From NCBI GenBank assembly GCA_964372955.1, contig CAYJTC010000002.1, forward strand, positions 1 through 42,260: a stretch of DNA of 42,260 nt, read 5' to 3'. The position numbers and the translations under genes were made by a program. Shown one piece after another: positions 2,417 to 42,260 of this stretch. Source of the stretch: an uncultured Planctomycetia bacterium (GTDB lineage Bacteria; Omnitrophota; Gorgyraeia; 1-14-0-20-64-10). The notes below the pieces were generated by a model. The model was not told where the DNA came from. It did not search any database and saw nothing but the letters and a program-made list of their open reading frames with translations. The stretch's first letter is position 1; each line of letters begins with the position of its first letter.

Positions 2417-3835
2417 TCAGGGACCATGGTGGTGTCCAGGTTCCAGGGCTGCCTTCAGACGGCTCTCGGAATCCACCAGGAAATTGCCGTTGACCACCAC
2501 CGGCTCTGCCTCTGAAACCCCGCTCTTGATCTCCACGAAGCCCTCCGCCCGGACGCCGGCGGAGATTTCTCTGGGCTCCAAAACCCCCTGCCCCCGATCC
2601 ACAAACAGGATCTGCCGGGCGCCGGTTTCCAGAACCGCCTCCGAAGGGACCGCCAGCCGCTGGCCGAGATCGACCCGGATCTGAGCCGCGGCAAACATCC
2701 CGGGCCGCAGGATCCCCTCCAGGTTAGGAAGCTCAAGCCGGGCGGTGGCGGTTCGGGTCTCTTCGTTGAGCGTGGGAGATAGAAAGACCACCTTGCCCTG
2801 AAGCGGCTCGTCGGGCTGCTGCGGCAAAGTCACCTGCGCCTCCTGCCCTTCCCGGACAAACGGCAGGTCCGCTTCATACACCTGGACATCCACCCAAACA
2901 GTGGAAAGATCGGCGACATGGTAGAAGTCGGCCCCCCGCTCCATGTATTCGCCCGGGAAGACATGCTTCCTAAGCACAAAGCCGTCCAGGGGGGAGGTCA
3001 AAACCAGGGTCTTGGCCGCGGCCCCGCGCTCCTCCAGGGCTTGGATCTGCTCCTCGGAGATGTCCCACCCGAGGAGCCGCTGGCGGGCCGATTCCAGGTT
3101 CTCCTGCGCCCTCTGACGGATCGCCGGATCGGCGCCCGCGGGGACCTCCTCAACCCAGCGGCGGGTCGACAGATACTCCTGCTGGGTGGTGACGAAATCT
3201 GGACTGTAAAAGGAAAAGAGCGGCTCCCCTTTTCGCACCCGGTCCCCTTCGTATCGGGCATAGATCTGGTCGATCCAGCCCTCCACCTTCGGGTGGACGT
3301 GAACGATCCGGGTCTCATCCACCCTCACCCGCCCGACGGCCCGGATCTGCTTGACCATCTGCCGCCTCTGGGCCGGGGCAGTCCTGACCCCAATGAGCTG
3401 CTGCCGGTGGGGAGAAAGCAGAACAGCCGCGTAACCGGCTGGGGTCGCTTCCGCCTGCGCCATCCCAGCCATCCCTTCGCCGCCGGAAACGTGCGTGCCG
3501 CAGACCGGACAGGAGACCTCTTCGCCCGCGCTGGAGATGACCAGCATCGGACAGAGCCGTCCCTCCTGGAGCATGGGGCAGTTGTGCAGGACGCAGATCT
3601 CCTTGGGCGAAGAGGCGGCCGTCTCCTTTTTCACCAGCCGCATGTTGCAGATGGGGCAGTCTCCTGGCCGATCTGCGGTGTAGGTCGGATGCATCGGGCA
3701 GTAGTAGAGATCCGCCCCCTTCTGCAAAGAGTGGGCCCGATGCCGGAGCGCCTGCGTGGCGACGATCCCCGTCAACAGAACCAGGACAACTCCCGCCCCA
3801 ACGGCCAGTCTGCGGCCTCCCGGAATCTTCATCAT
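2417..3835 (-). CDS. cusB: RND efflux periplasmic adaptor (membrane fusion protein, CusB/CzcB family) with N-terminal Cys/Met metal-binding motifs
   Basis: 472-aa ORF. N-terminal anchor RRLAVGAGVVLVLLTGIVA. Metal motifs YYCPMHPTYTADRPGDCPICNMRL, CPMLQEGRLCPML and CPVCGTH. MFP core follows (IRAVGRVRVDETRIVHVHPKVEGWIDQIY, LTSPLDGFVLRKHVFPGEY, ARLELPNLEGILRPGMFA). ATGA start/stop overlap with the upstream OMF gene at 3832..3835. Confidence 0.9.
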   Translation of the reverse strand: MMKIPGGRRLAVGAGVVLVLLTGIVATQALRHRAHSLQKGADLYYCPMHPTYTADRPGDCPICNMRLVKKETAASSPKEICVLHNCPMLQEGRLCPMLVISSAGEEVSCPVCGTHVSGGEGMAGMAQAEATPAGYAAVLLSPHRQQLIGVRTAPAQRRQMVKQIRAVGRVRVDETRIVHVHPKVEGWIDQIYARYEGDRVRKGEPLFSFYSPDFVTTQQEYLSTRRWVEEVPAGADPAIRQRAQENLESARQRLLGWDISEEQIQALEERGAAAKTLVLTSPLDGFVLRKHVFPGEYMERGADFYHVADLSTVWVDVQVYEADLPFVREGQEAQVTLPQQPDEPLQGKVVFLSPTLNEETRTATARLELPNLEGILRPGMFAAAQIRVDLGQRLAVPSEAVLETGARQILFVDRGQGVLEPREISAGVRAEGFVEIKSGVSEAEPVVVNGNFLVDSESRLKAALEPGHHHGP

Positions 3836-5193
3836 GGCTTTCGCCCCTCCTCCGAAAGTTCGTGCTGCTCCCGCAGGGGGATTCCCACCGCCTGCTCGAG
3901 CATGACCAGATGCTGTTCCAAAAGGGCCAGGTGCTGGTAGTAGGTCCGATGCCGTTGGGAAAGCTCCCGCTGCGCCTCCAGCAGATCACCCAGTGGAGCC
4001 GTCCCGGCTCGATAGGAAGCCAGCAGGGAGGAGACCCGTTGGCGGTCCAGCGGAATGAGCCCCTCCTGGCAAAGCTTCGCCGTGGCAAAAATCGCCTGGG
4101 CTTCCTGCCAATGTTCATGGATCCGGCGGGCGATCTGGTTGCGGGCCCCCTGGTAGGCGGCCTCGGTCGATTCCTTGTCGTACAGGGCGGCGCGGACCCC
4201 ATACTTCTGTTTGGTCCAGAACCAGAACGGCAGGACCAGCGCCAAGGTCAGATCCCACGGCCCCATCGGCCCCATCGCCGGATCCCGCAGCTCCACCATC
4301 GTCTCTAAGTCCGGCAGCAGCTCCCGCTTGGCCAGACGGTGGGCGGCCTGCGCCCGCTCCGCCGAATATCTAAAAGCCAGCAGCTCCGGCTGGTTCTCCT
4401 CCGCCTGGGTCAGAAGCTCCTCAGGCCCGGAAGGCACCTCCAGCAGGCTTAAAGGGCCTGGCGGGCCCATCGGGGCTCCGGCCGGCCGGTTCAGGAGGTG
4501 ATTCAGATGCGCCCAGGCCGCTTTGCGGCGGTGCTCCAGGACGGTCAGCTCGTTTTCGGCCTTCAGGCGTTCCGTCTGAACCTGCAGAAGCTCCGGTTGG
4601 CTGAGCGTTCCGGCCGCGTACCGGGCCCGCGCGGTGGCATCGGCCTGCTCAAACAAAAGGATCTGCTCCCGCTGAATCTCCATCTCCCGGTCCAACAAGA
4701 ACAGGTCGTAGTAGCCGGACTTCAGCTCGCTCAAAATCTCCCATTCCCTTTGCTTGAACATCGCCCCGGCCATCTGCGCCTCCTTGACCGCCACCTGCCC
4801 TTTGAGGGAAAGCTTGCCGGGGAAAGGCAGGGACTGAATCAGGGAGTAAAGGATCGTCGCCTGGTTGAGCTTCACGGTGCCCCGCGGGATCTCCTCGAAC
4901 TCCACCCCGATCCTGGGAGCCGGCAGCCCTTTGGCCTGCGGGATCCTCTCCTGCGCGGCCTCCCAGCGCTTCCGAGCGGCCCGCAGGTCCGGGTTGACTC
5001 GCCGGGCCTCTTCCAGCAGAGGAGCCAAGGAAAGGACCCCTGCCCCGTCGGCCGCAAGGGTGGGTGAAGGGTGAAGGGTGAAGGGTGAAAAAGAAAATGC
5101 CATGATGAGAAACCAGGAGACTCTCGAAAATTTCCCGTTCTTGGCCTTCACCTTACACCTTCGACCCTTCACCGTTTTTCCACTAGGGCACAT
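3832..5193 (-). CDS. Outer-membrane efflux factor, TolC/CzcC/CusC family
   Basis: 453-aa ORF with the two-repeat OMF pattern (LSLAPLLEEARRVNPDLRAARKRWEAAQERI and LTQAEENQPELLAFRYSAERAQAAHRLAKRELLPDL). First gene of the C-B-A order. The start is uncertain. ATG 5193 overlaps the upstream gene by 25 nt. In-frame GTG 5151 (MKAKNGKFSRVSWFLIMAFSFSPFTLHPSPTLAA|DG) and ATG 5103 are alternatives. Confidence 0.85.
   Translation of the reverse strand: MCPSGKTVKGRRCKVKAKNGKFSRVSWFLIMAFSFSPFTLHPSPTLAADGAGVLSLAPLLEEARRVNPDLRAARKRWEAAQERIPQAKGLPAPRIGVEFEEIPRGTVKLNQATILYSLIQSLPFPGKLSLKGQVAVKEAQMAGAMFKQREWEILSELKSGYYDLFLLDREMEIQREQILLFEQADATARARYAAGTLSQPELLQVQTERLKAENELTVLEHRRKAAWAHLNHLLNRPAGAPMGPPGPLSLLEVPSGPEELLTQAEENQPELLAFRYSAERAQAAHRLAKRELLPDLETMVELRDPAMGPMGPWDLTLALVLPFWFWTKQKYGVRAALYDKESTEAAYQGARNQIARRIHEHWQEAQAIFATAKLCQEGLIPLDRQRVSSLLASYRAGTAPLGDLLEAQRELSQRHRTYYQHLALLEQHLVMLEQAVGIPLREQHELSEEGRKP
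5056..5173. repeat. Inverted arrays of heptanucleotide repeats bracketing the OMF gene 5' end
   Basis: + strand 5056..5090 is AAGGGTG followed by (GGGTGAA)x4. + strand 5145..5173 is CCTTCACCTTACACCTTCGACCCTTCACC, degenerate complements of the same 7-mer. The two arms flank a spacer of about 54 nt that contains the ATG at 5103. Confidence 0.9.
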
Positions 5194-7473: not shown

Positions 7474-7517
7474 GTCATCCCCGCGAAAGCGGGGATCCTC
7501 GCTTCCGCGAGGATGAC
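7474..7517. repeat. Compound hairpin element between the ThrC-like and MoaD-like genes
   Basis: GTCATCC (7474..7480) pairs with GGATGAC (7511..7517). These enclose two hairpins: CCCCGC-GAAA-GCGGGG (7479..7494) and ATCCTCGC-TTCC-GCGAGGAT (7495..7514). It translates as ..VIPAKAGI.. / ..SPRKRGS.., the pseudo-peptide signature of a common intergenic repeat. Confidence 0.8.
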
Positions 7518-8744
7518 CTATGATTTAACGTTCTCTTCAAACGACGCAAGCGTCGGCTTGATCTTGATCGGCTTGCCGATGGCCTCGACGACCGCCTCCT
7601 GGGTCTTCAACCCGTGGCCGGTGACGCAGACCACGATCGATTCGTCGCGGGGGATCTTCTTCTCCTCGATCAGCCGCCGGGTGGCGGCCAGCGTCACCCC
7701 GCCGGCGGTCTCGGTGAAAACCCCTTCGGTCTGGCCCAGCAGCTTGATCGCCTCGATGATCTCCTCGTCGCTGACCGCCGCGCCCCAGCCGCCGGTTTCC
7801 CGGATGGCGTCGGCCGCGTAGTAACCGTCGGCCGGATTGCCGATCGCCAAGGACTTGGCGATCGTTTTGGGCTTAACCGGCTTGATGATATCGGAGCCCT
7901 CCAAGATGGCGGTCACGATCGGAGCGCATCCGGCGGCCTGGGCGGCGTACAGTTTGGTCTGCGGCTTCTCAATCAGACCCAGCTTGCGGAACTCCTTGAA
8001 CCCCTTCCAGATCTTGACCAGCAGAGACCCGCTGGCGGCCGGCACCACGATATGCCGCGGCGTCTTCCAGCCCATCTGCTCGGCCACCTCGAAACCGTAG
8101 GTCTTAGATCCCTCCGCGTAATAAGGGCGAATGTTAATGTTGACGAAGCCCCACCGGTGCCGGGTGGCGATCTCCGCGCAGAGCCGGTTGACCTCGTCGT
8201 AATTGCCCTCTACCGCCACCAGGCGGGGCTTGTAGATGAGGGACCCTACTACCTTGCTTGACTCCAGATCAGCCGGGATGAAGACAAAGCGTTCGAACCC
8301 GGCCTGGGCCGAAAGAGCCGAAACAGCGTTGGCCAGATTTCCGGTAGAGGCGCAGGCAACGGTGTCGAAGCCCAGCTCCCGGGCCCGGGAGAGGGCCACG
8401 GAGACGACCCGATCTTTAAAGGAAAGAGTAGGGTGGCAGACGCTGTCATCCTTGATGTACAGCTCCTTCACACCCAAGACCTTGCCCAGCCGCTCGGCCC
8501 GGAAGAAAGGGGTCATCCCGGTGTGAAGGCCGACCGTCGGATCCCCGTCGATGGGCAGCAGCTCCCGGTAGCGCCAGATGCTGCGCGGCCGGGATTCGAT
8601 CCGCTCCCGGGTGAGCTTCCCCTGGATGGCGGCGTAGTCGTAGTCCACCTCCAGGGAGCCGAAACAGTACTCGCAGACGAACAGGGCCTTGGGCGGAAAC
8701 TCCCGCCCGCATTCGCGGCAGCGCAGTCCTTTGATCAACGACAT
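7518..8744 (-). CDS. Threonine-synthase-family PLP enzyme with N-terminal zinc ribbon
   Basis: 408 aa. CRECGREFPPKALFVCEYC ribbon. PLP-lysine motif HPTLSFKDRVVSVALSRA. Also ACASTGNLANAVSA and VVPAASGSLLVKIWKGF. The start overlaps the upstream stop (TAATG at 8742..8746). Confidence 0.9.
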   Translation of the reverse strand: MSLIKGLRCRECGREFPPKALFVCEYCFGSLEVDYDYAAIQGKLTRERIESRPRSIWRYRELLPIDGDPTVGLHTGMTPFFRAERLGKVLGVKELYIKDDSVCHPTLSFKDRVVSVALSRARELGFDTVACASTGNLANAVSALSAQAGFERFVFIPADLESSKVVGSLIYKPRLVAVEGNYDEVNRLCAEIATRHRWGFVNINIRPYYAEGSKTYGFEVAEQMGWKTPRHIVVPAASGSLLVKIWKGFKEFRKLGLIEKPQTKLYAAQAAGCAPIVTAILEGSDIIKPVKPKTIAKSLAIGNPADGYYAADAIRETGGWGAAVSDEEIIEAIKLLGQTEGVFTETAGGVTLAATRRLIEEKKIPRDESIVVCVTGHGLKTQEAVVEAIGKPIKIKPTLASFEENVKS

Positions 8745-9535
8745 TAAGACGGTGAATAGTGAATCGTGGATAGTGAATCGATCGGCTTCTCTTTTTTGAG
8801 AGCCTTGGGCAGGATCACCACTTCCACGCGGCGGTTTTGGCGGCGGCCCTCCGGGGTATCGTTGGAGGCCACCGGATGGAACTCCCCGACCCCAACCGCC
8901 CTCAGGCGGGCCGGCTCAACCGCTTGCTGATCGATAAAATGGTGAACCACCGCCAGCGCCCGGGCAGTGGAGAGCTCCCAGTTGGACCTCCATCCGGAAT
9001 ACCGGATCGGCTCGTTATCGGTGTGCCCCTCCACCGCCACCGGGGAGTCCGGAACCGTTTCTTTGAGAACCGCGGCCACCTTTTCCAGAGTTTGGGCCCC
9101 CTCCTCTTTAACCAGCGCCTTGCCGGAATCGAAGAAGATCTCATCCAGGAAGGTCAGCACCAGCCCCCGCTCCGTCATCTCCAGCTTGGCCCGGGCCTCC
9201 CCCAACTCCTTCTTCAAGCTTTCGGCCAACTCCTCCTGGGCGTCAAGCAGCTCCTGGTTCTCCCGGGATTTCTGCTCGACCACCTGCGCGACCTGTCGGG
9301 TTTGCTCCTCCTGGAGCCGGCCGATCTGCGTCAGCAGATCCCGGCGGGATTGCTCGGCCTGGCTCAGCCGGCCTTTGAGCCGCTCCACCTCGGTCTCCAG
9401 GCCCTGCATTCGGGCCGACTTCCAGCCCCAGGAACAGCCGGTGAGAAGCAGGGAAAAGAGGGGAAACAGGGAGAACAGGGGAAACAGGGAAAACAGGTTT
9501 CCCCTGATTCCCCTGCCTCCCCTATTCACCCTCAT
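8744..9535 (-). CDS. OmpA/MotB-family lipoprotein with coiled-coil linker
   Basis: 263 aa. Lipobox LLLTGC. Coiled coil (LETEVERLKGRLSQAEQSRRDLLTQIGRLQEEQ). OmpA-C domain (VEGHTDNEPIRYSGWRSNWELSTARALAVVHHF, RRQNRRVEVVIL). ATGA overlap with the upstream MBL gene at 9532..9535. Confidence 0.9.
   Translation of the reverse strand: MRVNRGGRGIRGNLFSLFPLFSLFPLFSLLLTGCSWGWKSARMQGLETEVERLKGRLSQAEQSRRDLLTQIGRLQEEQTRQVAQVVEQKSRENQELLDAQEELAESLKKELGEARAKLEMTERGLVLTFLDEIFFDSGKALVKEEGAQTLEKVAAVLKETVPDSPVAVEGHTDNEPIRYSGWRSNWELSTARALAVVHHFIDQQAVEPARLRAVGVGEFHPVASNDTPEGRRQNRRVEVVILPKALKKEKPIDSLSTIHYSPS
8751..8780. repeat. Heptanucleotide tract in the last codons of the OmpA-like gene
   Basis: GGTGAAT AGTGAAT CGTGGAT AGTGAAT CG. 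Period 7. Immediately upstream, in mRNA sense, of the ThrC-like start codon. Confidence 0.8.
9448..9535. repeat. Inverted arrays of 9-bp repeats encoding the OmpA-like signal peptide
   Basis: + strand 9448..9497: GCAGGGAAAAGAGGGGAAACAGGGAGAACAGGGGAAACAGGGAAAACAGG. + strand 9498..9535 is the complementary type: TTTCCCCTGATTCCCCTGCCTCCCCTATTCACCCTCAT. In mRNA sense the G-rich arm gives MRVNRGGRGIRGN and the C-rich arm gives LFSLFPLFSLFPLFSLLL. Confidence 0.9.
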
Positions 9536-10239
9536 TCCCCTCTTGCCCCTTCCTTGCGCAGGATCTCGACCATCTTTCCCTTGGCCAGGCTCTCGAACCG
9601 CTTGGCGTCGGCCACCGTTCCCACGACAGAGCCGTAATGCATCGGCACATACACCTTAGCCGCAATGGCCCCCGCGGCTTTCGCCGCTTCCTCGGCGGTC
9701 ATCACGTAGGTGCCGCTGACCGGCAGAAGGGCCACATCCACTTTGATCTGTTTCATCTCCGGGATGAAATCGGTGTCGCCGGCATGGTAAAAACGAGTTC
9801 CGTCAACCTCCAGGATGAAGCCGACCCAGCCGTTTTCCTTGAGATGGAACATCTTGTTGGCGTTGTAGGCCGGCACCGCCTCGATTTGAACCTTCTTCAA
9901 GGTCAAGACATCCCCCGGCTTGACCGGATGAATCTTCCCCGGAACTCGGGCCTGCTCCAGCTTCGCCACAGCTCCTGTGACGGTGACGATCACCGTGTCG
10001 GCCTTGGCCACCTTGATCACGTCCGGCGGGGAGAGGTGGTCGAAGTGAGGATGGGTGATCAAAATCAGGTCCGCGTCGTGCGGCTCCCCCTCGATCTGCC
10101 AAGGGTCGAAATAGATCGTCACCTCCGCTCCGACTAGCTTGAAGGCGGCGTGCCCCAGCCAGGTTAAACCCCGGGTATAAGAGGAAGCCGGCATCTCCAC
10201 AGCGCTAAAAGCGGTCGTGAGTCGTGAGTCATGGGTCAT
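9532..10239 (-). CDS. MBL-fold metallo-hydrolase (UPF0173-like)
   Basis: Core LTWLGHAAFKLVGAEVTIYFDPWQIEGEPHDADLILITHPHFDHLSPPDV, and later YHAGDTDFIPEM and LLPVSGTYVMTAEEAAKAA. The start is uncertain. ATG 10239 is conservative. ATG 10371 would add a hydrophobic signal-like stretch (RRGLFFLGFLLLL) but would translate a REP hairpin. The track start 10482 overlaps the giant ORF end. Confidence 0.85.
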   Translation of the reverse strand: MTHDSRLTTAFSAVEMPASSYTRGLTWLGHAAFKLVGAEVTIYFDPWQIEGEPHDADLILITHPHFDHLSPPDVIKVAKADTVIVTVTGAVAKLEQARVPGKIHPVKPGDVLTLKKVQIEAVPAYNANKMFHLKENGWVGFILEVDGTRFYHAGDTDFIPEMKQIKVDVALLPVSGTYVMTAEEAAKAAGAIAAKVYVPMHYGSVVGTVADAKRFESLAKGKMVEILRKEGARGE

Positions 10240-10243
10240 GAGT
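10214..10243. repeat. Heptanucleotide tract at the MBL gene 5' end
   Basis: GTCGTGA GTCGTGA GTCATGG GTCATGA GT. Period 7. No inverted partner seen. Confidence 0.8.
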
Positions 10244-10294
10244 AAAAGCAAAAATCCAAGGAAAAACAGGCCTCTTCGATGGAAAGGCAGATCT

Positions 10295-10351
10295 AAAGGG
10301 GTCAGACCCCTGTGAAACTCCGTTTTACCTGTAAGGGGTCTGACCCCTTTT
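10295..10351. repeat. REP-like hairpin, GGGGTCAG family
   Basis: AAAGGGGTCAGACCCCT (10295..10311) and AGGGGTCTGACCCCTTT (10334..10350) form a perfect 17-bp stem with a 22-nt loop, 52 nt downstream of the giant ORF-B stop. Confidence 0.85.
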
Positions 10352-10402
10352 GAGATGGGGTGCCGATCCATGGAGGCCAGTATAGCAAAAGAAGGGTGGG
10401 GT

Positions 10403-13400
10403 TTACAGGTAGAGTTCGGGCTGGCGCTCGAGCCGCTTCTGCCAGGTCCGGAAGGAGACGTCCTCGATCTCCAGGAAATCACCCAGCCCGCTCAGGCCCG
10501 AAGGGGTCCAGATGGTCAGGACATCCAGGCCGCGGCCGATGGCGTCCACTTGCATCTTGGTGATCACATCCGACGGGTCTTTATCGGCATAGGGAGGGCT
10601 TTTCAGATTGATGATTTTCGCCGCCAGGCCGGTGTCCTTTAGCCAGCCCTCAATCTGCCCGGCGTGGTGGACATGCTCGGCGAAGATCACCAGGTTGATC
10701 TGCTCGCCGGGGACCGGCTTCAGCTGAGCCAGGCCCTGAAGCACCTCCTCGGTGGCCACCTCCGGCCCCAGGAAGATCACCTTCCCCGCCGTCACGCCGG
10801 GCTTCAGCCGGATTTGAAGCTCCTCAAGCCCGGCCGTAGCAGGTTGGGCTTTAACCCGGGCCTGAGCGAGAGCTTTCGGATACCATTCCTCGTCAACCAG
10901 CTTGCGAAGGGCTTCCGCCACTTGTTTGGCGCGCGCTCCTTGGCCTTCGGTGGCAATGCGCAACATCCCCTCTGTCAAAGAACCTCTGAGCCAGACGAAC
11001 GCCTTCCCGCCGTCCAGCTCCAACTCCATAATCCATCCTCCCATACCGAAGGGAGTCCCATTCTCGCTGGGCAAGGTCAAACCGGCTCCCGCCGGATCGG
11101 CCGGACCATAAGCGGGAGAGAGACCGGTTTCCGAGTCGTAAACAATCCGGTAATCGGCCGTAGGATGCACCGATGTCCCGTCCGCCAGGATGAGTCCCTC
11201 TTTCTGGAGTCGATCCCGCAGGTTTTCCTTCCACAGGGTTTCCCAAGCCCGTTTGAAAGGGATCATGAGCGCCTCCGGAACCTCTCCCTGTGCTCCCTGA
11301 TCGCGGATCGGGGTGGAGAAACGCCAGCTTCCCTCGCTCCGGTCTCCCGGCAGGCTCCCGAGAATATCCAACAGAGTGGGCACGGCAGGCACTTCTACTG
11401 GAGGAACGCCGTTGGGTACCGCGGCGTTTCTGGCTTGGAGCCAACTTCGCGCCCATTCCGGATCGGTGGCCACCATCCCTAGAAATAGAGCGGTCATCGC
11501 CCCGTTGCGGCTGGTATCCCCCAAAAACTGAGCGCTCTCTCCCCGGAATACCGTGCCGCCGTTGGCTCCTTCGATTCCAAGAACCACCCGATAAGTAGGG
11601 CGGCCTCCGGCGTCCTTCTGTGCCTCCAGCTTCCTCATCTTCTCCAAGACGTTGACCTCTCCCACCTCCACTGGGAACACCTCAGCCCCAAAGGCCTTGG
11701 CGATTTCCAAAACCCGTTTGGAGGTGGCGCTGTGAGCGACGACGGCCAATTTTGAAGCATCCCCCGCCGGTCGAGCGCGGGCGGCTCTGGCTAAGCCCAA
11801 AGCCATGTTCATCGCGGCCACCTCTTGGGGATTGGGCTCAACGGCCTGACCGGTCTTGGGATCCAGAAGGAGCGTGTTCGCCCGGTCGGCGTCGTAATCG
11901 GTGATGATGGCGAAATGGGCTTGGGCTTCTTTCAGCACCCTCTCAGCATCGGCCAACGCGTTCCCCTTCTCTGGATCGTTCACCGGCTCCAGGATATGCT
12001 GGGGCTGTCCTACAACATGGTTGATCTCGATCAGATCAAACCCCATCCTTTCTAGGAATTCCGCGTAATACCCGGTTGCCGCCCCTCCATTAGGATCAAC
12101 CACAATCCGGACCCGTTTGGCTTTCTCTCGAAATCCCTGGAACTCCTCCTCCTGTTCCAAACCCCACATCTGCCGAGCCTCTTTGACAACCTGCCCCAGA
12201 ATCTTCTCCCGAGAGACCGTTTCAAGTCTGCCGACGGGCACGGCGTTCAAGCGCTGGACAAATTCCTGTGCCTGCTCAGGAGACGCCCCCGCCTGCGCGG
12301 CCCACCGGCGGAATTGGTCGACGACACTCTTCATCTGGCGCGAGGGAAGCAGGATCCCTCCTTCCACCAGACTTCCCGCGGGTTCGGTGGCGGCTGTTGG
12401 GTATTTTACGCCGTTCCATCTTAAAGGATTGTGGCTGGCAGTGATGATGCCCCCTCCATGCGCTTCCACCAAGCGCACTAGACTCTCAGAGAGGGGGGTG
12501 GGAAGGATTCCCCCCTCGACTTCAACGAACCGGACCTTGACGTTGAACTCCTGGGCTGCGACCGAAATCCCCCGCATGTGGGCCTCCTGGATGGCCCTGC
12601 CGGTTGGACGGGGATCCCGCCCAAAGATGAAGGTAAACTCCGAACGGCCGGAAAATTTCTCAATCTGGAGTTTGGCGAAAAGGTACCCGTATCGCGCGAA
12701 GATCAGCTTCTGCGCGGGGGAAAGCTTCACATCCGCCAGCGGAGCCAAAATGGGAGGGTCGACGTTCGGGCCCAAATCGGCCCGCACACCGGAGAAGGAC
12801 TGGATCAGTGTCCTGTCCGGATCAGTCACCTCGGCCCACTTGGACCAATCGATGGGGCCTAGCCATTCCTCCGGGCCGGCCACAACCTCGCTTTGCGGAT
12901 GGACGAAGACGGCGAACTCCCCTTCGAAACCCATCTTTGAACGAACGACGGTGACATTCCCTCCGAGGGACTGTTGGATCGCCTCCAGGAAGATATCCGG
13001 CTTTCCACTTTCCTCAGGAGGCAGTCCCCAGAGCTGGCCAATCGATCCGGCCAAGACAATCGGCCCCTGCGTGAAGGGCTGCCCGGCGTAGGCGTCCAGG
13101 TAAACCCGCAGGACCTGGCCCAGCTCGGTTCCAACCTGCTCCAGGAACTGGCGGGCCAGTCTGCCGTGGATCGTTGAATCGTTCAAAGCTCTCTGGGTTA
13201 TCCCCTGGAGAACGATCAGCTGCAGCTTCTCGTCCGCCAAGATCGGCCGGTGGGCGCCGGGAAGATCATCCTCAGTCAGATTTTGGGTCACCGGACCACC
13301 GAATAATCGGTCAATCTCTGCATCGGACAGACGGTACAAATCATTGTTTCTCAGGAATTCAATGGTGCGGGCCGCAAGCCACGGCCCTCCAAACTCCTTC

Positions 13401-16400
13401 TCGGCCGGCTCTTCCTCCGGCTGAGGATCCGGCAGTCTCCCTTCCTTGGGAAAATGATAGACCCACGGGCCGTCCGCCTGCCTCATGACACTCCATCCAA
13501 ATTCCCCCAACAGGCCGCCCACTTCTTGTCCGGGGAGTGAGTCGATCGGCTTTCCGCCTTGAAGAACACCGATGCTGGTACCAGTCCCTAAGGTCAGAAC
13601 CATCCCCTGTTGAAGCCCCTTGAGAGCCCCTTCTTCCCAAAGAAACTCTCCCCATACCCGGGCCTCATCCTCGGAGACGATTCGGATGGGCAGTTCCCTC
13701 CCGAAGAGGGAATAGAGCTCCTCTCCCAGAAGCTGTTTGAAGGGGGTGGGCTTCCGAAACCCGACGATCTTGGCGTTCTGGACGGTCAGGGGGCCAACCA
13801 CCCCGCCGAATGAGATCCCCACTTCTTTCAGATTCTCTGGCTGAGCGTCAAGGTCCTCCCGGAGCGTTTTCTGAATCAGTGCGGCGATCACCTGAGCCGC
13901 CCAACGCTCATCCGTATCTTGCCCAAAATCGGGATACATATTCTTCAGTTTTTCCCAAGTGAAGTATTCCGTGGCGATCTCAGAGGCCGCCCGGGCGCCG
14001 TCCTTCTCCCCTACCCCGACCCCCACCTTGAACGCCCCCATGCTTAGATAAACACCGACATCCGGCGCCTGAGCTTCCCTGGTCCCCGGGGCGCTCACCG
14101 TCTCGCGCCCAGCGCCAGACTCGGCCTCCTTATTCGTCGGCCGGCGCTCCTCCAGGCCGGCCGCCGCGCCTGCCAAGTCAGATAGAGCCTGGATGACCGA
14201 CCGATTCGAAGTTTGAGGCAGTCGGTTGACCAACTGGTCCAGCACCGCCTCCCAACCGCCTAAGAGGGCCGCCGCCCTGCGCTTGGCAATTTCGATCTTG
14301 AGGATCTCACAGACTCCCGCGGGCCCCAGAGTTGGGCAGCGGATGACTGAGCCGGGCAGCTCTTCCTGAGGCTCTCCCACCAGCACTGTGGTGATCCCCT
14401 CCTGGCTCATGGAAAGCCCTGCAGCATCCGCGTCATCGAGGAAAACGACTTTCCCCTTCCGATGTCGGAGGAAATCATCCTTCCCGAAAGCGTACAGGTC
14501 GATGGAGGTGTCGAGGAAGGGGCCCACCAAGGTTTCCCCAAAAGCCTTTACCAAACGGGACCGAACCTCTCTACCTGCCGATTCCAATGCGTTTTCCGCC
14601 AGACCGTTAGGGCGAAGCTGCACGATGCCATACAGCTTGGGGCCCTGACCTTCCTGCATCACATAGAGGTTCAGATCCCCCAGCCGGTAAAGATCCATGT
14701 CCGGATTGGCCGGTGGAATCACCGGATCCTCCAGCTCTCCCCCGATGTTCAAACCTGGGATAGGCCCCCACTCCGCCGACTGGATGGCCGCCACAATCCG
14801 GTCGATCGTGAACTCTCCGGATCCCATGCGCTGGGTCACCAACTCCGGAAACTCCTCTTTCAACCAGCGGGTCCCATTGCGGCCCATGTGCTGCAATGGG
14901 CCGGTCCCTTCTTGGGCCCGCTGGCGAAGATTCTGATCCGCTCGGTTGGAAAGAAAGCCCCCTTTCCCCCCCAAGGCCAGATATTCCCCGCACAGCCGCA
15001 GCACCTCCGGATCGGCCTGGGCCTTGCCGTCCGGAGCGCCGGCACGGTCCAGGTCGATCCAGATTTCATCGGCAGGAGGATCCCACGCCAGCCGTTCCAT
15101 TCCCTTGAGAGCCGGCGGCAGCAGAGCTTCCCACCTCTGCGCCAACTGCTCGGGCCGATAAGCAGGCTGAAGGACGCGGATCCCTTTGACCTCGCGCGGG
15201 ACCGCCTCCGTTAAAGGCAGACGAACCACCTGGATTCCGGGAAACGTCTTCTCCGCATCCTTCAGTTTCACCGGACCTCGGGGATGCAGGTGGAAAACCC
15301 TCTGATACGCTCCCGGATTTTGTCGGGCAAGCCAGTCGAAGGTCTTTCCTTCCATCACCTCAGGCGAGGGCCCTTTCGGATGACGCTGGCCAAGCATCAC
15401 GATGCTGACCACCTGACTCAAAGTCGCTGTCGGCACCTGACTTTGGATGATCCCCTCCATCGCCTTCCGATAGTCCACGATGTTGTAACGGATGGTAAAG
15501 AGCAGGTTGTCCGGGTTGACCATCCAGATAATCGTGGCTCCCCGTTTCTTGGCGTCGATGAGCGCCTGAATCACCCCGGGGATGGAGAGGATGCTGGCGA
15601 CACTCTCATGGAAATTTCCGGGCGCGATGACGACCAGCTCCGCCCGCCGGATCTGCCGCAGAAAGAGCGGATTGGCGGCAAAGGGCGGCTGCCCCTTGCC
15701 CGAGACAAACCGGTAGGCGCCGGGTCCTAAGAGAACCGAGGCCCGATCCTTCGGGCTCCGTAGCATCTGCTCCAGAAGCTGCTGCGCCTTCTGCGCAGAG
15801 ACCGGTTCCCCGTTGGGGCCGGCCACCAGATCCGAGAGGATCTCCAGACTCTTGGGATCCCCCACGGGAGGAACGACTAATCCTACCGTGCCCAGCCCCC
15901 GCCGCACCGTCGCGTGCGCTCGGCCAGTCCTCAGATCACCATGCACCGTCACGATCTGAGGAGACTCAAAGGTGGTCGGCAGAACCCAGGGCCCTCCGAC
16001 GGCTTCCCGGAGCAGATATTCGGCAACCAGATACTTTTCTGTGTCGATGGGCCCTCCCCTCGGATAGGCCCCGACCATGACCTTCGCCCCGACATCCAAC
16101 AAATTCTGCAAGGTCTGGCCGCTGACGGCGATATAATCCTTCTGAATCAGCTCTGCATCGACAACCTCAAAGACCTGCTGGAGGAACGCCAGGAACCGAA
16201 CCAGCGCGGCCCGCCCTTGAGAACCCAAAGGCCCCTGCTCCTCCTCCCAGCGGGCGATCATGCTGGGGATCCCTGTGACCAGCTCCTCCATCTTTCCCTG
16301 CCGATACTCCTTCTGGGCCGCCCGTGAAACCGCCAGTTCCCACAGGGACCCCGGAGGAATTTCGGAAGGCAGCTCCAGCTTCAGCAGCTCCCGGATCAGG

Positions 16401-18781
16401 CCCTCGCCCCGCAAGTTCATCGGGTCGGCCATGTCGACCGGATTGACTCCTCGCTGGGCCAGGACCTCGGCGCGGAAACGGCCCGCCCTTCCCCAGGTGT
16501 CCAAGACATTGGCCCAAAGCACGGCGTCCACGCCTACCCTCTTCAAAGATTCAGCCACAAGATCTGTCCCGTGGCCGCCCCCCAAAACGACAACTGGCGG
16601 AGCCCCATTCAGGAAATGAAGCACCCGCTCTGGAGTGGGCCAATGTTCCGGCATGGCCCAGCCCAAAACCTGCTCCTCGGACGCCGGCACGTCGGACTGC
16701 AGGGACCGGCGCGACAGGAGGCCAACGCCAGCTTTCACCCACTCCTCCGCTTCATTCTCCGATCCAATGGCCAGCGTCAACTCCTGAACCGTCGGCGCCT
16801 GCACCTGGATCTCCTCCAGCCCCGCCTGAGTCTGCTGAGCCTGGGCTGCCAGGGTGGCCTCTACCTGTTCCAAATCCGCCTGAGTGGTCAGGTCCGGCGC
16901 CTTCGCCGGGTCAATCAGCACCGTCTCCACCCGACCGTCCTGATCCAGCACCATCCTTACAATGTCGGTCAGGTAAAACTGGCTTTGGGCGTTGTTGTTC
17001 GTGGTCGCGGCCAATTCATCAAAGAGATGCTTGGCTTTCATGGCATAGATCGAGACGTTGCATTCATGGATAGCCAGCAGCTGCTCCATGGTGTAACCGC
17101 CCAACGTGGTCCCCGCCTTGATGTCTTCCTCTTCCAGGATGCCTAATACCTGTCCTTTCGCATCCCGAACGATCCTGCCTTTCCCTTTCGGATCAGCAAA
17201 AATCGCCGTGGCGATCACCAGGTCGGCTCCGCTATCCCGATAAGCTTTTTCCACCGATTCCAGAACCTGCCGGTCATACAACGGCTGATCCCCCATCGTG
17301 GCGATGACCAGCGCGTTGCTGTCTCTTAGACCTTTCACCGCCGCCCCATGGTAGATGGCGTAGCCGGTTCCACCGGTCGGGTTCTCCACCTCGACAAAGA
17401 TAATTTCCGGCATGTGGGCCCGATACGCATCCATCACTTTCCCCTTCTCATACCCAACCACCGAAATCACCGGCCAGCCCAAATCCCTGGCGAAAAGTTT
17501 GGTGCGAACTCCACTGGGGAGGGTTCCCCTCACAGGGTCTTTTAAGAGGGCAATCATCTTCAGCTGCTGCCCCGTCGAGTCAAACCGGGTCCCTCTACCG
17601 GCATCCGCGGTCACCAGCACCGTCTTTGCATCAGACAGATCTTGCCCCATTTCCGCTGGATAACTCACCGGTACCGATTTCAGATCGACCGCCTGCTCCA
17701 GAAGCTGGCCCTCCTCCAGCCCGGCCTGCGGAGTCGCGGCGATCTGGTCATAGAGTGCAAAAAGGGTCAGGATGGCATTTCCGGAGGGCTGGGTTAATGT
17801 GGGACCCAGCTCTTCCAGCCGGGTCCAGTCCGAAAGAGAAAGCGGGGACACCATCCGGTCTCCAAACTGAGACTCGGGGGCGGTCAGGCTGCGAAAGAGC
17901 CGGTGCCGCAATGTCTGGGTCGTGTGCCGGTAATGGAGATTTTGAAAGGGCCGCGGGAGGGTGTCGCCGGCATTCTCATCGTATTCGCCCTCGATGGCAT
18001 GAAGGACGATCTTCTGCCTCAGCAGGAGGGGGTCGATCCCTTGATCTCCGGCCAGCTCCTCCAATAGATCCAGGAAGAGCCGGTAAGTGTCTCCTGAAAA
18101 AACACTGTCCAAGAGAACCGTGACACCTCTTCTTCGCACCAGAGAAACCGGATCCAAGACCTTCTCCAGGTATTTCTTGTAAGCCGCCTTCTGTTCCGGG
18201 CTCGGCTCTTTGCGCACTCTGGAGATAACCACCGAAGAATACGCATATCCCCTGGCGAAAGCTCCCTTCTGCCCCACCCGATCCATCGCTTCCAGCGCTC
18301 GGACCAAAAGGGCAGCGCTGTCTCCCAAAGCGACCAACTGTAACTGAGGCTCATCCCGGTATTCCCGCTCCAGAATCTCCCGGGTCCGCTGGGCGGTGGC
18401 CAGCAGATCACGGATCCGATCTTCCACGGAGTAGTCCCTTTTGTTGTAAGCGAAATCGGGGTATTGGAGCGCCGGCATCGGCTGGAAAGTGGCTGCGACC
18501 TGGCCCCTCAAGGAACCTTTTGAAGCATCCGTCAATCGCCGGTAATTTTCATAGGTGGGCTCTTCTCGAAAGGTCTTCAAGTCCGCCGTCTCTTCCAGCC
18601 CGGCCCGCTGGGGGGCCCGGAGGTTGGATTCCAGCCCGGTTTTGGCGCCGCTCTGATGGGCCGCCTCACCCCGGAGGGAGTCGGCCTCAGCGAAAGCAAA
18701 AGGGCAAGGAATCCCGGAAAAGGCGAGCGCCTGGATCAGGGTCCAGGCGCTTAAGCCGCGAATGCGAATCGGAAATTTCAT
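10403..18781 (-). CDS. Giant multidomain protein B (about 2792 aa): signal peptide, unknown domain, sugar-phosphate nucleotidyltransferase-like, YvcK/CofD-family, unknown/HAD-like, ROK/PPGK-like kinase, phosphohexomutase, shared C-terminal domain
   Basis: Uninterrupted 8.4-kb ORF. ATG at 18781 (in-frame TTG at 18784), 27-30 nt after ORF-A. Residue numbers follow the ORF track.
- aa 1-33: signal peptide (MMKFPIRIRGLSAWTLIQALAFSGIPCPFAFA|EA).
- aa ~385-625: GT-A nucleotidyltransferase like the GlmU N-half (VLVTADAGRGTRF, GGTGYAIYHG, ATMGDQPL, FYLTDIV).
- aa ~728-1100: UPF0052/YvcK/CofD type (VVVLGGGHGTDLVAESLK, AELVVIAPGNFHESVASILSIPGVIQALIDAKKRGATIIWMVNP).
- aa ~1235-1460: weak HAD-like motifs (IWIDLDRAG, VVFLDDADAAG).
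- aa ~1575-1950: ASKHA/ROK-like (MVLTLGTGTSIGV, IVLAGSIGQ), with a degenerate N-terminal phosphate loop.
- aa ~2045-2625: alpha-D-phosphohexomutase with all four loops (GGIITASHNP, AIITDYDADR, GIEGANGG, RGSLTEGMLRIATE).
- aa 2656-2793: C-terminal domain. Confidence 0.93.
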   Translation of the reverse strand: MKFPIRIRGLSAWTLIQALAFSGIPCPFAFAEADSLRGEAAHQSGAKTGLESNLRAPQRAGLEETADLKTFREEPTYENYRRLTDASKGSLRGQVAATFQPMPALQYPDFAYNKRDYSVEDRIRDLLATAQRTREILEREYRDEPQLQLVALGDSAALLVRALEAMDRVGQKGAFARGYAYSSVVISRVRKEPSPEQKAAYKKYLEKVLDPVSLVRRRGVTVLLDSVFSGDTYRLFLDLLEELAGDQGIDPLLLRQKIVLHAIEGEYDENAGDTLPRPFQNLHYRHTTQTLRHRLFRSLTAPESQFGDRMVSPLSLSDWTRLEELGPTLTQPSGNAILTLFALYDQIAATPQAGLEEGQLLEQAVDLKSVPVSYPAEMGQDLSDAKTVLVTADAGRGTRFDSTGQQLKMIALLKDPVRGTLPSGVRTKLFARDLGWPVISVVGYEKGKVMDAYRAHMPEIIFVEVENPTGGTGYAIYHGAAVKGLRDSNALVIATMGDQPLYDRQVLESVEKAYRDSGADLVIATAIFADPKGKGRIVRDAKGQVLGILEEEDIKAGTTLGGYTMEQLLAIHECNVSIYAMKAKHLFDELAATTNNNAQSQFYLTDIVRMVLDQDGRVETVLIDPAKAPDLTTQADLEQVEATLAAQAQQTQAGLEEIQVQAPTVQELTLAIGSENEAEEWVKAGVGLLSRRSLQSDVPASEEQVLGWAMPEHWPTPERVLHFLNGAPPVVVLGGGHGTDLVAESLKRVGVDAVLWANVLDTWGRAGRFRAEVLAQRGVNPVDMADPMNLRGEGLIRELLKLELPSEIPPGSLWELAVSRAAQKEYRQGKMEELVTGIPSMIARWEEEQGPLGSQGRAALVRFLAFLQQVFEVVDAELIQKDYIAVSGQTLQNLLDVGAKVMVGAYPRGGPIDTEKYLVAEYLLREAVGGPWVLPTTFESPQIVTVHGDLRTGRAHATVRRGLGTVGLVVPPVGDPKSLEILSDLVAGPNGEPVSAQKAQQLLEQMLRSPKDRASVLLGPGAYRFVSGKGQPPFAANPLFLRQIRRAELVVIAPGNFHESVASILSIPGVIQALIDAKKRGATIIWMVNPDNLLFTIRYNIVDYRKAMEGIIQSQVPTATLSQVVSIVMLGQRHPKGPSPEVMEGKTFDWLARQNPGAYQRVFHLHPRGPVKLKDAEKTFPGIQVVRLPLTEAVPREVKGIRVLQPAYRPEQLAQRWEALLPPALKGMERLAWDPPADEIWIDLDRAGAPDGKAQADPEVLRLCGEYLALGGKGGFLSNRADQNLRQRAQEGTGPLQHMGRNGTRWLKEEFPELVTQRMGSGEFTIDRIVAAIQSAEWGPIPGLNIGGELEDPVIPPANPDMDLYRLGDLNLYVMQEGQGPKLYGIVQLRPNGLAENALESAGREVRSRLVKAFGETLVGPFLDTSIDLYAFGKDDFLRHRKGKVVFLDDADAAGLSMSQEGITTVLVGEPQEELPGSVIRCPTLGPAGVCEILKIEIAKRRAAALLGGWEAVLDQLVNRLPQTSNRSVIQALSDLAGAAAGLEERRPTNKEAESGAGRETVSAPGTREAQAPDVGVYLSMGAFKVGVGVGEKDGARAASEIATEYFTWEKLKNMYPDFGQDTDERWAAQVIAALIQKTLREDLDAQPENLKEVGISFGGVVGPLTVQNAKIVGFRKPTPFKQLLGEELYSLFGRELPIRIVSEDEARVWGEFLWEEGALKGLQQGMVLTLGTGTSIGVLQGGKPIDSLPGQEVGGLLGEFGWSVMRQADGPWVYHFPKEGRLPDPQPEEEPAEKEFGGPWLAARTIEFLRNNDLYRLSDAEIDRLFGGPVTQNLTEDDLPGAHRPILADEKLQLIVLQGITQRALNDSTIHGRLARQFLEQVGTELGQVLRVYLDAYAGQPFTQGPIVLAGSIGQLWGLPPEESGKPDIFLEAIQQSLGGNVTVVRSKMGFEGEFAVFVHPQSEVVAGPEEWLGPIDWSKWAEVTDPDRTLIQSFSGVRADLGPNVDPPILAPLADVKLSPAQKLIFARYGYLFAKLQIEKFSGRSEFTFIFGRDPRPTGRAIQEAHMRGISVAAQEFNVKVRFVEVEGGILPTPLSESLVRLVEAHGGGIITASHNPLRWNGVKYPTAATEPAGSLVEGGILLPSRQMKSVVDQFRRWAAQAGASPEQAQEFVQRLNAVPVGRLETVSREKILGQVVKEARQMWGLEQEEEFQGFREKAKRVRIVVDPNGGAATGYYAEFLERMGFDLIEINHVVGQPQHILEPVNDPEKGNALADAERVLKEAQAHFAIITDYDADRANTLLLDPKTGQAVEPNPQEVAAMNMALGLARAARARPAGDASKLAVVAHSATSKRVLEIAKAFGAEVFPVEVGEVNVLEKMRKLEAQKDAGGRPTYRVVLGIEGANGGTVFRGESAQFLGDTSRNGAMTALFLGMVATDPEWARSWLQARNAAVPNGVPPVEVPAVPTLLDILGSLPGDRSEGSWRFSTPIRDQGAQGEVPEALMIPFKRAWETLWKENLRDRLQKEGLILADGTSVHPTADYRIVYDSETGLSPAYGPADPAGAGLTLPSENGTPFGMGGWIMELELDGGKAFVWLRGSLTEGMLRIATEGQGARAKQVAEALRKLVDEEWYPKALAQARVKAQPATAGLEELQIRLKPGVTAGKVIFLGPEVATEEVLQGLAQLKPVPGEQINLVIFAEHVHHAGQIEGWLKDTGLAAKIINLKSPPYADKDPSDVITKMQVDAIGRGLDVLTIWTPSGLSGLGDFLEIEDVSFRTWQKRLERQPELYL

Positions 18782-18811
18782 CAAAAAAGAGTCGCTAAGG
18801 CAACGTGAATT

Positions 18812-38947: not shown

Positions 38948-39009
38948 CAAAAGGGGTCAGGCACTTTTTGACAGCCTCTAACCGGGTTGTCATAAAGTGC
39001 CTGACCCCT
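38948..39009. repeat. REP-like hairpin, GGGGTCAG family
   Basis: AGGGGTCAGGCACTTT (38952..38967) pairs with AAAGTGCCTGACCCCT (38994..39009). The right arm encodes the last residues (GSGTL*) of the upstream gene. The first 25 nt are identical to 5659..5683. Confidence 0.85.

Positions 39010-41336: not shown

Positions 41337-42260
<924 letters not shown>

Follow-up and report, generated by a model that had tools for sequence, protein, structure and literature searches.

A palindromic array of nine-nucleotide repeats as the putative source of a whole lipoprotein signal peptide in an uncultured Omnitrophota bacterium

Signal peptides carry little sequence information, and the emergence of new ones is rarely visible. 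Here, we analysed a 42-kb window (the whole stretch of 42,260 nucleotides studied, from contig CAYJTC010000002.1) of an uncultured bacterium of the Omnitrophota, a little-known phylum of very small cells, in which an OmpA-family gene opens within a palindromic array of short tandem repeats, referred to below as array 1. This array occupies window positions 9449-9550, consists of tandem 9-bp units and then of their complement, and spans codons 1-29 of the gene. We propose that array 1 is a translated, lineage-specific palindromic short-tandem-repeat cassette which would supply the entire positively charged n-region and hydrophobic h-region of a signal peptidase II (SPase II) signal, and that it is one case of a recurrent phenomenon. 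From the sequence evidence given below, we place the probability of this reading at about 0.7. There is a strong association between such cassettes and the 5' ends of genes for exported proteins, and the cassettes are read in a fixed frame, both in this genome and, with different repeat units, in other Omnitrophota.

The repeat structure was delimited with Tandem Repeats Finder: the unit CAGGGAAAA is present in 5.4 copies at 9449-9497, and its complement, at 9499-9541/9550, in 4.8-5.8. Taken as an inverted repeat, array 1 has arms of 48 nt that are 79% complementary and separated by 5 nt. The RNA of 9430-9560 (minus strand) is predicted to form a single long hairpin of -81 kcal/mol, against -51.8 ± 4.1 kcal/mol for shuffled sequences (z-score = -7.1), and this stability was matched by none of 200 shuffles. 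The hairpin of repeats that the first-pass annotation had described at the start of the OmpA-family gene is thus present exactly as it was written; its position was right for the array itself but too short on one side, since the purine arm actually reaches ~9550, 5' of the ATG. With at most one mismatch allowed, the 9-mer occurs 50 times in the window (expected 19.9 ± 3.8; 0 of 100 shuffles reached 50), and the surplus is accounted for by array 1 and by a second array at 41995-42260 (array 2).

The purine-rich arm contains the last codons of the upstream gene, which encodes a metallo-beta-lactamase (MBL)-fold protein (..KEGARGE), together with its TGA (9532-9534), the ATG of the OmpA-family gene (9535-9533) and codons 1-13. 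It also holds the Shine-Dalgarno (SD)-like sequences GGAAGGGG and GAGGGG, the first of them 10 nt 5' of the ATG, so that the array may provide the ribosome-binding G-runs as well. One C-to-G change within a unit (GGGGAATCA to GGGGAATGA) yields both the TGA of the MBL-fold gene and the ATG of the OmpA-family gene. The lipobox codons lie outside the perfect repeat, yet CTGCTTCTC is a degenerate unit. The coordinates of all these features are collected in Table 1.

Table 1. Positions and repeat content of the genes and cassettes in the window, with the related loci from other Omnitrophota.
Feature	Coordinates	Strand	Details
OmpA-family gene, peptidoglycan-associated-type lipoprotein (predicted)	8744..9535	-	263 aa; opens at ATG 9535
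Array 1, purine-rich 5' arm (mRNA)	9499..9550	-	Units (A/G)GGGGA(A/G)(A/T/G)C
Array 1, pyrimidine-rich 3' arm	9449..9497	-	CTGTTTTCC, CTGTTTCCC, CTGTTCTCC, CTGTTTCCC, CTCTTTTCC, CTG; encodes h-region LFSLFPLFSLFPLFSL, codons 14-29
Lipobox codons L30-L31-T32-G33-C34	9434..9448	-	Cys34 codon 9436-9434
Upstream MBL-fold gene (Lactamase_B_3)	9532..10371	-	Likely start ATG 10371; stop overlaps OmpA ATG as ATGA
Array 2, purine arm	41995..42154	+	17.8 copies of GGGGAAWCA; begins 5 nt past the stop of a HAD-like gene
Array 2, pyrimidine arm	42156..42260	+	At least 11.7 copies of CTGTYTTCC, read (LSS/LFS)n; window ends inside
TolC-like outer membrane efflux protein (OEP) gene	3832..5193	-	PF02321, E 1.8e-40; heptamer arms 57 nt apart
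OEP heptamer purine arm	5145..5173	-	GGTGAAG GGTCGAA GGTGTAA GGTGAAG G; encodes VKGRRCKVK in n-region MCPSGKTVKGRRCKVKAKNGKFSR
OEP heptamer pyrimidine arm	5062..5089	-	TTCACCC x4, 100% matches; SPFTLHPSP at the end of the signal peptide ..VSWFLIMAFSFSPFTLHPSPTLAA, then DGAG
Solute-binding-protein (SBP)/permease gene	38990..41269	-	GGTGTAGGGTGAAGGGTCGAGGGTGGGG and TGCACCC x4 encode MNTSRCRVKGRGWGTLKG..WMLALALLYSSAPCTLHPPPVFA, then TE
SBP heptamer purine arm	41226..41256	-	GGTGTAGGGTGAAGGGTCGAGGGTGGGGAAC; encodes RCRVKGRGWG
SBP heptamer pyrimidine arm	41156..41184	-	TGCACCC x4.1; APCTLHPPP in signal peptide MNTSRCRVKGRGWGTLKGWMLALALLYSSAPCTLHPPPVFA, then TE
L043, hairpin of OmpA orthologue			VREVRGQRKENRGEKIEGRGQKTS / VLYLLLSVLYLLALAGC; minimum free energy -79 kcal/mol; z -7.1
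L044 (= L127), hairpin of OmpA orthologue			MRTESSRQKAVGSKRDYRR / FYCLLLTAFCLLSFPGC; minimum free energy -83 kcal/mol; z -6.6
L046, cassette at start of BatD-like gene			VKRQGLAGARRGWQGLAG / VLLPLLTLTYPFSPLLTPAFS, then AEEL
L049, cassette of a 603-aa open reading frame			MMGKVKRQKSKGKTTIQNLK / FLSFSFVFCILSFTLVCYA, then EE; frame overlaps upstream stop as ATGA
Long or REP-like N-termini			P0005, P0008, P0011, P0022, P0026, P0030, P0032, P0037, P0065, P0077; L046 3001-3135; L111

No known type of element accounts for array 1 in the searches made. With Rfam 15 nothing reached the gathering score, the matches being generic microRNA-hairpin models of 20-43 bits (gathering scores 60-137). A scan for intrinsic (Rho-independent) terminators gave no terminator-like site at the array, the 3' arm being followed by CUGCUUCUCACC, and a promoter scan gave no meaningful signature there. 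A CRISPR reading was rejected because the array is without spacers. When a 24-mer of the array was searched in 185,579 species-representative genomes, 42 matches were obtained, all of them plain non-palindromic tandem repeats in unrelated taxa and uninformative about array 1.

We then considered the protein. Its N-terminus reads MRVNRGGRGIRGN-LFSLFPLFSLFPLFSL-LLTGC, and it possesses an OmpA_C domain (PF00691, E 2.9e-19, residues 134-235, full profile covered) as well as a coiled-coil segment; its relatives are OmpA-family proteins of Candidatus Omnitrophota (identity 55-71%). At the N-terminus of practically all of the 120 homologues listed there is a signal of the lipoprotein type with ..[GAS]C at its end, and S[FW][AG]WKSAR..LE..QLKG comes next. 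The window protein aligns with them from ..TGC-SWGWKSARMQGLETEVERLKG, with a mature sequence C-SWGWKSAR from the Cys onward, and G33 and C34 are invariant in an alignment of 45 Omnitrophota orthologues. As a peptidoglycan-binding protein, it needs an export signal. From the upstream in-frame stop to C34, ATG1 and GTG3 are the only start codons. Since no start codon lies between array 1 and the invariant C34, the export signal must be encoded by the array.

An intergenic repeat could in principle have been absorbed wrongly into the reading frame, the true start lying downstream and no signal being encoded by the array. It is true that programs for finding open reading frames (ORFs) extend to the first start codon, and elements resembling repetitive extragenic palindromes (REP) occur in many Omnitrophota orthologue N-termini, which are possibly over-extensions. 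However, the next ATG encodes M43, beyond Cys34 and beyond conserved mature residues, an OmpA_C peptidoglycan-binding protein requires export, and the upstream stop overlaps the ATG at 9535, so that there is no intergenic space. We therefore consider this explanation very improbable, and a start at M43, downstream of the invariant lipobox Cys34, was rejected.

Lipoprotein signals are described by a lipobox rule (PROSITE PS51257-type), namely [LVI][ASTVI][GAS]C after uncharged residues, with the Cys within residues 15-35. Applied as a regular expression, the rule recovers FPLFSLLLTGC with the Cys at 34. The n-region MRVNRGGRGIRGN (codons 1-13) has a net charge of +4, with Arg at R2 and R5 within the first 7 residues. 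The uncharged stretch before Cys34 has 22 residues and a mean Kyte-Doolittle hydropathy of 1.54 (median of 15 residues and hydropathy of 2.06 in the orthologues). A lipobox was recognisable in 113 of the 120 homologues, with the Cys at a median position of 20 (interquartile range 19-23). These observations support a predicted SPase II signal, with a mature form that would begin at Cys34, and they bear out the earlier claim that the n-region and the h-region of a lipoprotein signal both come from a single cassette. The predicted signal has the positive n-region, hydrophobic h-region and lipobox L-T-G-C of ordinary SPase II signals, and a Cys conserved with orthologues; unlike them, it has its Cys at 34 instead of ~20, an h-region made of a 3-residue repeat with Pro and Ser, and self-complementary coding DNA. 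A Tat signal was rejected, there being no RR pair in MRVNRGGRGIRGN (consensus (S/T)RRxFLK).

In the frame used, the purine arm reads AGG GGA AWC, that is Arg/Gly/Asn/Ile, and gives a positively charged n-region, and the complement reads CTG TTT YCC, that is Leu/Phe/Ser/Pro, and gives an uncharged hydrophobic core. Purine-rich codons with A or G at the second position specify charged or polar residues, and their complements, with U or C, specify hydrophobic or small ones (PMC8431130); the pairing of n- and h-region from a single palindrome thus follows from the genetic code. Moreover, a 9-bp unit keeps the frame when the copy number changes. When the three frames were compared for charge of the n-arm and hydropathy of the h-arm, the frame in use was the best in all eight cassettes and the sole open frame in seven of the eight.

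The strands are not equivalent either. The predicted fold is stronger in the sense than in the antisense orientation for array 1 (-79.8 vs -60.2 kcal/mol, with 6 vs 0 G.U pairs), array 2 (-157.1 vs -123.0 kcal/mol, 13 vs 3) and the OmpA orthologue L043 (-61.9 vs -49.0 kcal/mol, 4 vs 3). These G.U pairs result from TCC (Ser) in the pyrimidine arm at places for which a perfect complement would have CCC (Pro). In antisense, the equivalent frame gives (REN/RED)n(FPL/IPL)n, an acidic peptide rich in Pro. This asymmetry is the mark of selection on the expressed strand, for which a cause at the protein level (avoidance of Pro in the h-region) suffices without any RNA function.

The junction with the upstream gene is part of the array. 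The MBL-fold gene ends in ..VEILRKEGARGE-TGA; its C-terminal GARGE tail is derived from the array, since the MBL orthologues end at ..VE[IV]L.K[EQ].. As the SD and AUG lie inside the stem of array 1, very little independent initiation is to be expected, and expression would hinge on translation of the MBL-fold gene. Stop/start overlaps (ATGA/GTGA or 1 nt) occur at the window OmpA gene and at L043, L044/L127, L046 and L049. We suppose that a strong mRNA hairpin could be tolerated through such translational coupling (1-4 nt overlaps), a terminating ribosome melting the 5' arm. That RNA pairing couples initiation to structure, as had been suggested, is therefore plausible for the array 1 gene, judging from its SD/AUG in the stem and its ATGA overlap. 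This initiation geometry is not common to the other cassettes, in which the hairpin begins 1-27 nt after the start codon and the loops measure 5-57 nt.

The gene order is kept across independent assemblies, in the sequence giant protein, MBL, (BatD), OmpA, ThrC, ThiS, with a 4-nt stop/start overlap at every OmpA start, and locus L128 has the same MBL-OmpA arrangement as the window, without BatD. Because the flanks of array 1 are syntenic in independent assemblies (five of them, over MBL-(BatD)-OmpA-ThrC-ThiS), array 1 is not an assembly artefact. That palindromic arrays are products of assembly or amplification is suggested by the end of the window, which falls within array 2, and by the risk of chimeras where inverted repeats stand at contig ends; array 1, however, is internal, its reading frame is intact, and analogous hairpins are found in ENA, JGI, NCBI and Logan assemblies. 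An artefact is thus the least credible of the explanations, and we regard it as extremely improbable.

The BatD-like gene between MBL and OmpA is present in L046, L127 and L129 and absent from the window, L128, L130 and L131; with or without it, the start of OmpA overlaps the stop of its immediate upstream neighbour. At the other end of the OmpA-family gene, its TAA stop overlaps the ATG of ThrC as TAATG, and its C-terminal tail (..IDSLSTIHYSPS*) at 8747-8778 comes from a heptamer array (GATTCAC/TATTCAC x4 on the mRNA), so that repeats are found at both ends of the gene.

Array 1 is not alone in the window, which holds four purine/pyrimidine inverted repeats of two families. The second 9-mer cassette, array 2, has GAGGGG 4 nt 5' of an ATG at 42012, and its purine arm, in the codon phase of array 1, reads ...(RG[NIK])n, in an ORF that continues past the end of the window. 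A search of its peptide against 5.8 billion proteins returned collagen-like low-complexity noise only. The second family consists of heptamers, GGGTGAA / GGGTGCA with their complements, again with the purine arm preceding the pyrimidine arm, in the OEP and SBP genes. The two heptamer copies are read in the same frame (GTG AAG GGT CGA, VKGR, and P[FC]TLHP in both), as are the two 9-mer copies. In loci L127-L129, the OEP orthologues have ordinary, non-folding signal regions.

All four window cassettes stand at the 5' end of an ORF, and three of the four begin genes for exported proteins. To quantify this, a start zone was defined as the first 180 nt of exported-protein genes (3.8% of the window). 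The centres of all three evaluable cassettes fall within such zones, with P ~5e-5 by chance and ~4.5e-4 for any gene start (permutation). Similarly, the window has 10 tandem arrays with a unit of at most 9 nt and at least 3.9 copies, and 6 of these lie in exported-gene start zones; the remaining four comprise two that are array 2, the OmpA 3' tail and an in-frame hexamer inside a giant gene. As regards dispersal, each family is represented by two copies within 42 kb, and no further copies of either were found in public protein and genome collections, which lack the source genome. Exact look-ups of two window proteins, the OmpA-family and the HAD-like one, gave no record either.

Short perfect tandem repeats in the coding region of a leader peptide recall contingency loci, where slipped-strand mispairing changes the copy number; 7-nt units would then switch exported or surface proteins and 9-nt units would alter the length of the signal peptide. 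Such repeats are indeed present (TTCACCC x4 at 100%, TGCACCC x4.1 and, in array 2, 17.8 copies in one arm and at least 11.7 in the other), the two 9-mer arrays differ about threefold in copy number, and the CTCTT leader repeats of Opa provide a precedent (PMC3960869). However, slippage of the 9-nt unit of arrays 1 and 2 cannot shift the frame, and ~4 heptamer copies are few for high-rate switching. A unit that is not a multiple of 3, as in Opa, is found in the OEP and SBP heptamer cassettes and not in arrays 1 and 2. Slippage of a 7-nt unit would shift the frame, and phase variation of the OEP and SBP genes is possible; as an explanation of the cassettes in general, we hold contingency switching to be quite unlikely.

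We next turned to related loci. Most OmpA orthologues have ordinary signals, e.g., MKKNLSLLLFVLGIALLSGC, and their coding DNA has a z-score of ~0, which answers the comparison with array-less orthologues that the first-pass annotation had called for. In four related loci, many of whose genes have ordinary signal peptides, the z-score of the 5' end lies between about -2.5 and +1.6 for 42 of 46 called genes. There are three strong outliers (z -8.6, -6.3 and -5.2), and all are signal-peptide regions that carry repeats. Since ordinary signal-peptide DNA folds normally, a hairpin is no automatic result of coding for basic and then hydrophobic residues. The idea that cassettes may create export signals is in this way upheld as an association, by the window cassettes and by four further ones in other Omnitrophota lineages, each with a unit of its own, in two OmpA orthologues, a BatD-like gene and a 603-aa protein.

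A metagenome scan with the orthologue alignment gave ~10 Omnitrophota-like loci among the matches listed; the rest, distant OmpA/MotB proteins, served as an outgroup control. In 608 kb from other phyla we found five purine/pyrimidine hairpins, none made of tandem-repeat arrays and none at an ORF start. Per 100 kb, the density of such hairpins was 4.1 in Omnitrophota-like DNA vs 0.8 in other phyla. In a Clostridium sp. metagenome-assembled genome (L027, ~4190-4320, minus strand), an unrelated lipoprotein, MKKSVKGIKGIRGIRGIRGITGIKGITGIFTGILMMGLLSGC, has an n-region from a non-palindromic tandem repeat of the GGGGAATCA type; repeat-encoded n-regions are thus not limited to Omnitrophota.

L127, L131 and L130, of the P0029 clade, have the pyrimidine-arm h-region in common, and a purine arm (29 nt) occurs in L127 only. 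This arm agrees at 32 of 40 positions with the reverse-complemented pyrimidine arm of L127 itself, which fits an inverted duplication of h-region DNA, the alternative being loss of the arm together with BatD. More generally, the Cys lies at position 30 or beyond in about 12% of the OmpA orthologues, and the long N-termini (Table 1) resemble translated REP-type palindromes (RAEPVEAR/FDKLRANG, SLRAPKGRSNL with CFVAALLAMT, VIPAKAGI, RGLTPL). At L111, an unrelated locus and the only one at which its DNA was seen, the CFVASLLAMT/SLRAKRSNL element is perfectly palindromic in its DNA. The junction of MBL/BatD with OmpA looks like a hot spot for the absorption of palindromic DNA into the signal peptide.

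The selected function might instead lie at the level of nucleic acid, the peptide being merely tolerated: a hairpin, or a competing G-quadruplex, at the gene junction could enforce translational coupling, set the stoichiometry of the downstream protein, stabilise the mRNA or target it to the membrane. The very stable structure of the sense strand with its G.U bias, the OmpA SD and AUG in the stem with the ATGA overlap, and the coupling of every hairpin-bearing gene to its upstream gene all speak for such a function. So do the canonical G-quadruplex motifs, of which 7 of the 12 in the window (both strands) fall within cassettes; at the start codon, an RNA G-quadruplex might form from the purine arm, (GGGG-N5)n, and compete with the hairpin. 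However, the hairpin lies anywhere from -15 to +27 nt from the start codon with a loop of 5 to 57 nt, which leaves no conserved RNA geometry, and the G.U bias follows equally well from a selective preference for Ser to Pro in the h-region. Moreover, coupled junctions of cytoplasmic-protein genes such as OmpA-ThrC and ThiS-NIL have no cassettes, and there is neither an Rfam family nor a terminator signature. Given the lack of a common RNA geometry, we rank regulation at the RNA level as a rival below the translated signal cassette, and consider it unlikely.

How translated cassettes could arise and spread can be outlined as follows. Slippage, together with inverted duplication or template switching, would create and enlarge a cassette from the pyrimidine-rich DNA of an h-region, and cassettes might be copied from gene to gene. 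The presence of two same-frame copies per family argues for copying between loci. Cassettes would then survive only at sites whose peptide product is of use or at least tolerated, i.e., in signal peptides. A further step, which we put forward tentatively and do not expect to hold, is that cassettes are portable modules of SD, start codon, n-region and h-region, copied between genes, growing or shrinking through slippage and hairpin-templated repair, and used by Omnitrophota to create, replace or retune export signals, with the 7-nt units phase-switching exported proteins. That cassettes are put to active use in making, moving or tuning export signals, and are not just tolerated there, is likewise possible but doubtful. 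If the portable-module proposal were true, it would mean a dedicated genetic mechanism for making signal peptides and not a passive tolerance of junk repeats.

Several observations weigh against the reading of array 1 as one of many signal-encoding cassettes. The signal peptide is long (Cys34 vs an orthologue median of 20), with Pro and Ser in its h-region, and the position of SD and AUG within a stem of ~-80 kcal/mol possibly blocks expression if coupling fails. The gene 3' of array 2 lies beyond the window, and the 47 basic plus at least 36 hydrophobic residues of this array far exceed normal signal peptides. In the OEP and SBP genes, an internal Met is possibly the true start, in which case the purine arm is 5' untranslated region. 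In the P0029 clade, gain and loss of the purine arm are both possible. As to sampling, L043 and L044 were selected for their odd N-termini and hence form a biased sample; L046 and L049, which came from hairpin scans of all fetched DNA, and the heptamer cassettes of the window are the unbiased extra cases. Finally, an initial lax ORF-start criterion failed to separate purine/pyrimidine from other hairpins, about half of the ordinary hairpins passing it in this GC-rich DNA, and it was superseded by called genes and the start-zone permutation.

Some of these traits have known counterparts. Rickettsia palindromic elements (RPEs) are in-frame palindromes that add peptide segments to mature proteins. 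To our knowledge, intergenic palindromes of the REP type or of bacterial interspersed mosaic elements (BIME), and the short tandemly repeated repetitive (STRR) heptamers of cyanobacteria, are non-coding and unassociated with export signals; the cassettes resemble them as lineage-specific short repeats or hairpins at gene boundaries, and Omnitrophota REP-like elements also enter n-regions. Palindromic amphipathic repeat coding elements (PARCELs) are in-frame palindromic elements that form repeats of mature domains and not signals (PMC2996958). RPEs and PARCELs share with array 1 a palindromic repeat DNA that is tolerated in ORFs, adds peptide segments and can be read on either strand, but they are conserved elements of 75-150 nt in mature regions, and neither purine/pyrimidine-asymmetric tandem arrays nor signal peptides. 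Borrelia IS605 stem-loops were rejected as a parallel, being located at the 3' ends of genes.

Among tandem repeats that are translated within leader peptides, the nearest precedent is the CTCTT "coding repeat" in the leader-peptide region of Neisseria opa (PMC3960869). As in Opa, a pyrimidine-rich short tandem repeat, prone to slipped-strand mispairing, forms the hydrophobic part of the signal peptide of a surface protein. Unlike the Opa repeat, a 5-nt frame-shifting on/off unit without a complementary arm, array 1 has an in-frame 9-nt unit and a complementary arm that forms the n-region. The hydropathic complementarity of sense and antisense peptides (Mekler/Blalock; reviewed in PMC8431130) concerns peptide-peptide recognition and two separate strands. 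The complement of a stretch coding for hydrophobic residues encodes polar or charged ones there as here; the halves of the array, however, belong to a single mRNA, differ by one codon phase and make up two functional regions of the same signal. A full-text literature search whose journal coverage is incomplete gave no account, in Omnitrophota or elsewhere, of a palindromic purine/pyrimidine repeat from which both signal-peptide regions are encoded, which is consistent with the earlier statement that such a case had not been described. The comparison supports a whole signal in the form of one palindrome as the new element here, leader-peptide coding repeats and in-frame palindromic elements being already known.

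In array 1, the origin of a signal peptide would be readable from the DNA, the pyrimidine repeat being the core and its inverted copy the basic n-region; one self-complementary array may thus give ribosome-binding G-runs, a start codon and both regions of an export signal. This solution is seen at least 8 times, with at least 6 repeat units and in several gene families and Omnitrophota lineages, which points to a general route to export signals. It also matters for metagenome annotation, where such N-termini mimic low-complexity junk or over-extended ORFs and the repeats break assemblies. The hypotheses opened by these findings are that repeats may tune or switch the exported proteome and that strong 5' hairpins may be tolerated in particular ways at coupled junctions.

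Other repeats were noted around these genes. In the signal-peptide region of the MBL-fold gene, the n-region contains a REP-like palindrome at 10292-10353 (GGGGTCAGACCCC ... GGGGTCTGACCCC; peptide KGVRPLTG..HRGLTPL), and the heptamer GTCATGA x4.3 at 10214-10243 encodes a 6-residue insertion, THDSRL, relative to orthologues. A strong hairpin that is not of the purine/pyrimidine type lies at 38952-39009, between the permease and SBP genes, with arms of 25-26 nt that are 92% complementary (AGGGGTCAGGCAC...), and is related to the GGGGTCAGACCCC motif. Downstream of ThrC, the intergenic DNA contains a 42-nt tandem repeat at 7103-7203 (x2.4, 98% matches) and, at ~7480-7520, a REP-like hairpin of the VIPAKAGI type.

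The two adjacent giant genes, at 10403..18784 and 18812..30274 (minus strand), code for proteins of 2793 and 3820 aa that begin with signal-like sequences. A recurrent AGLEE motif is found in both between apparent fused enzyme modules, and the orthologous giant genes, syntenic in L046 and L127-L129, give weak Pfam matches to PGM/PMM, SIS and GHMP-kinase.

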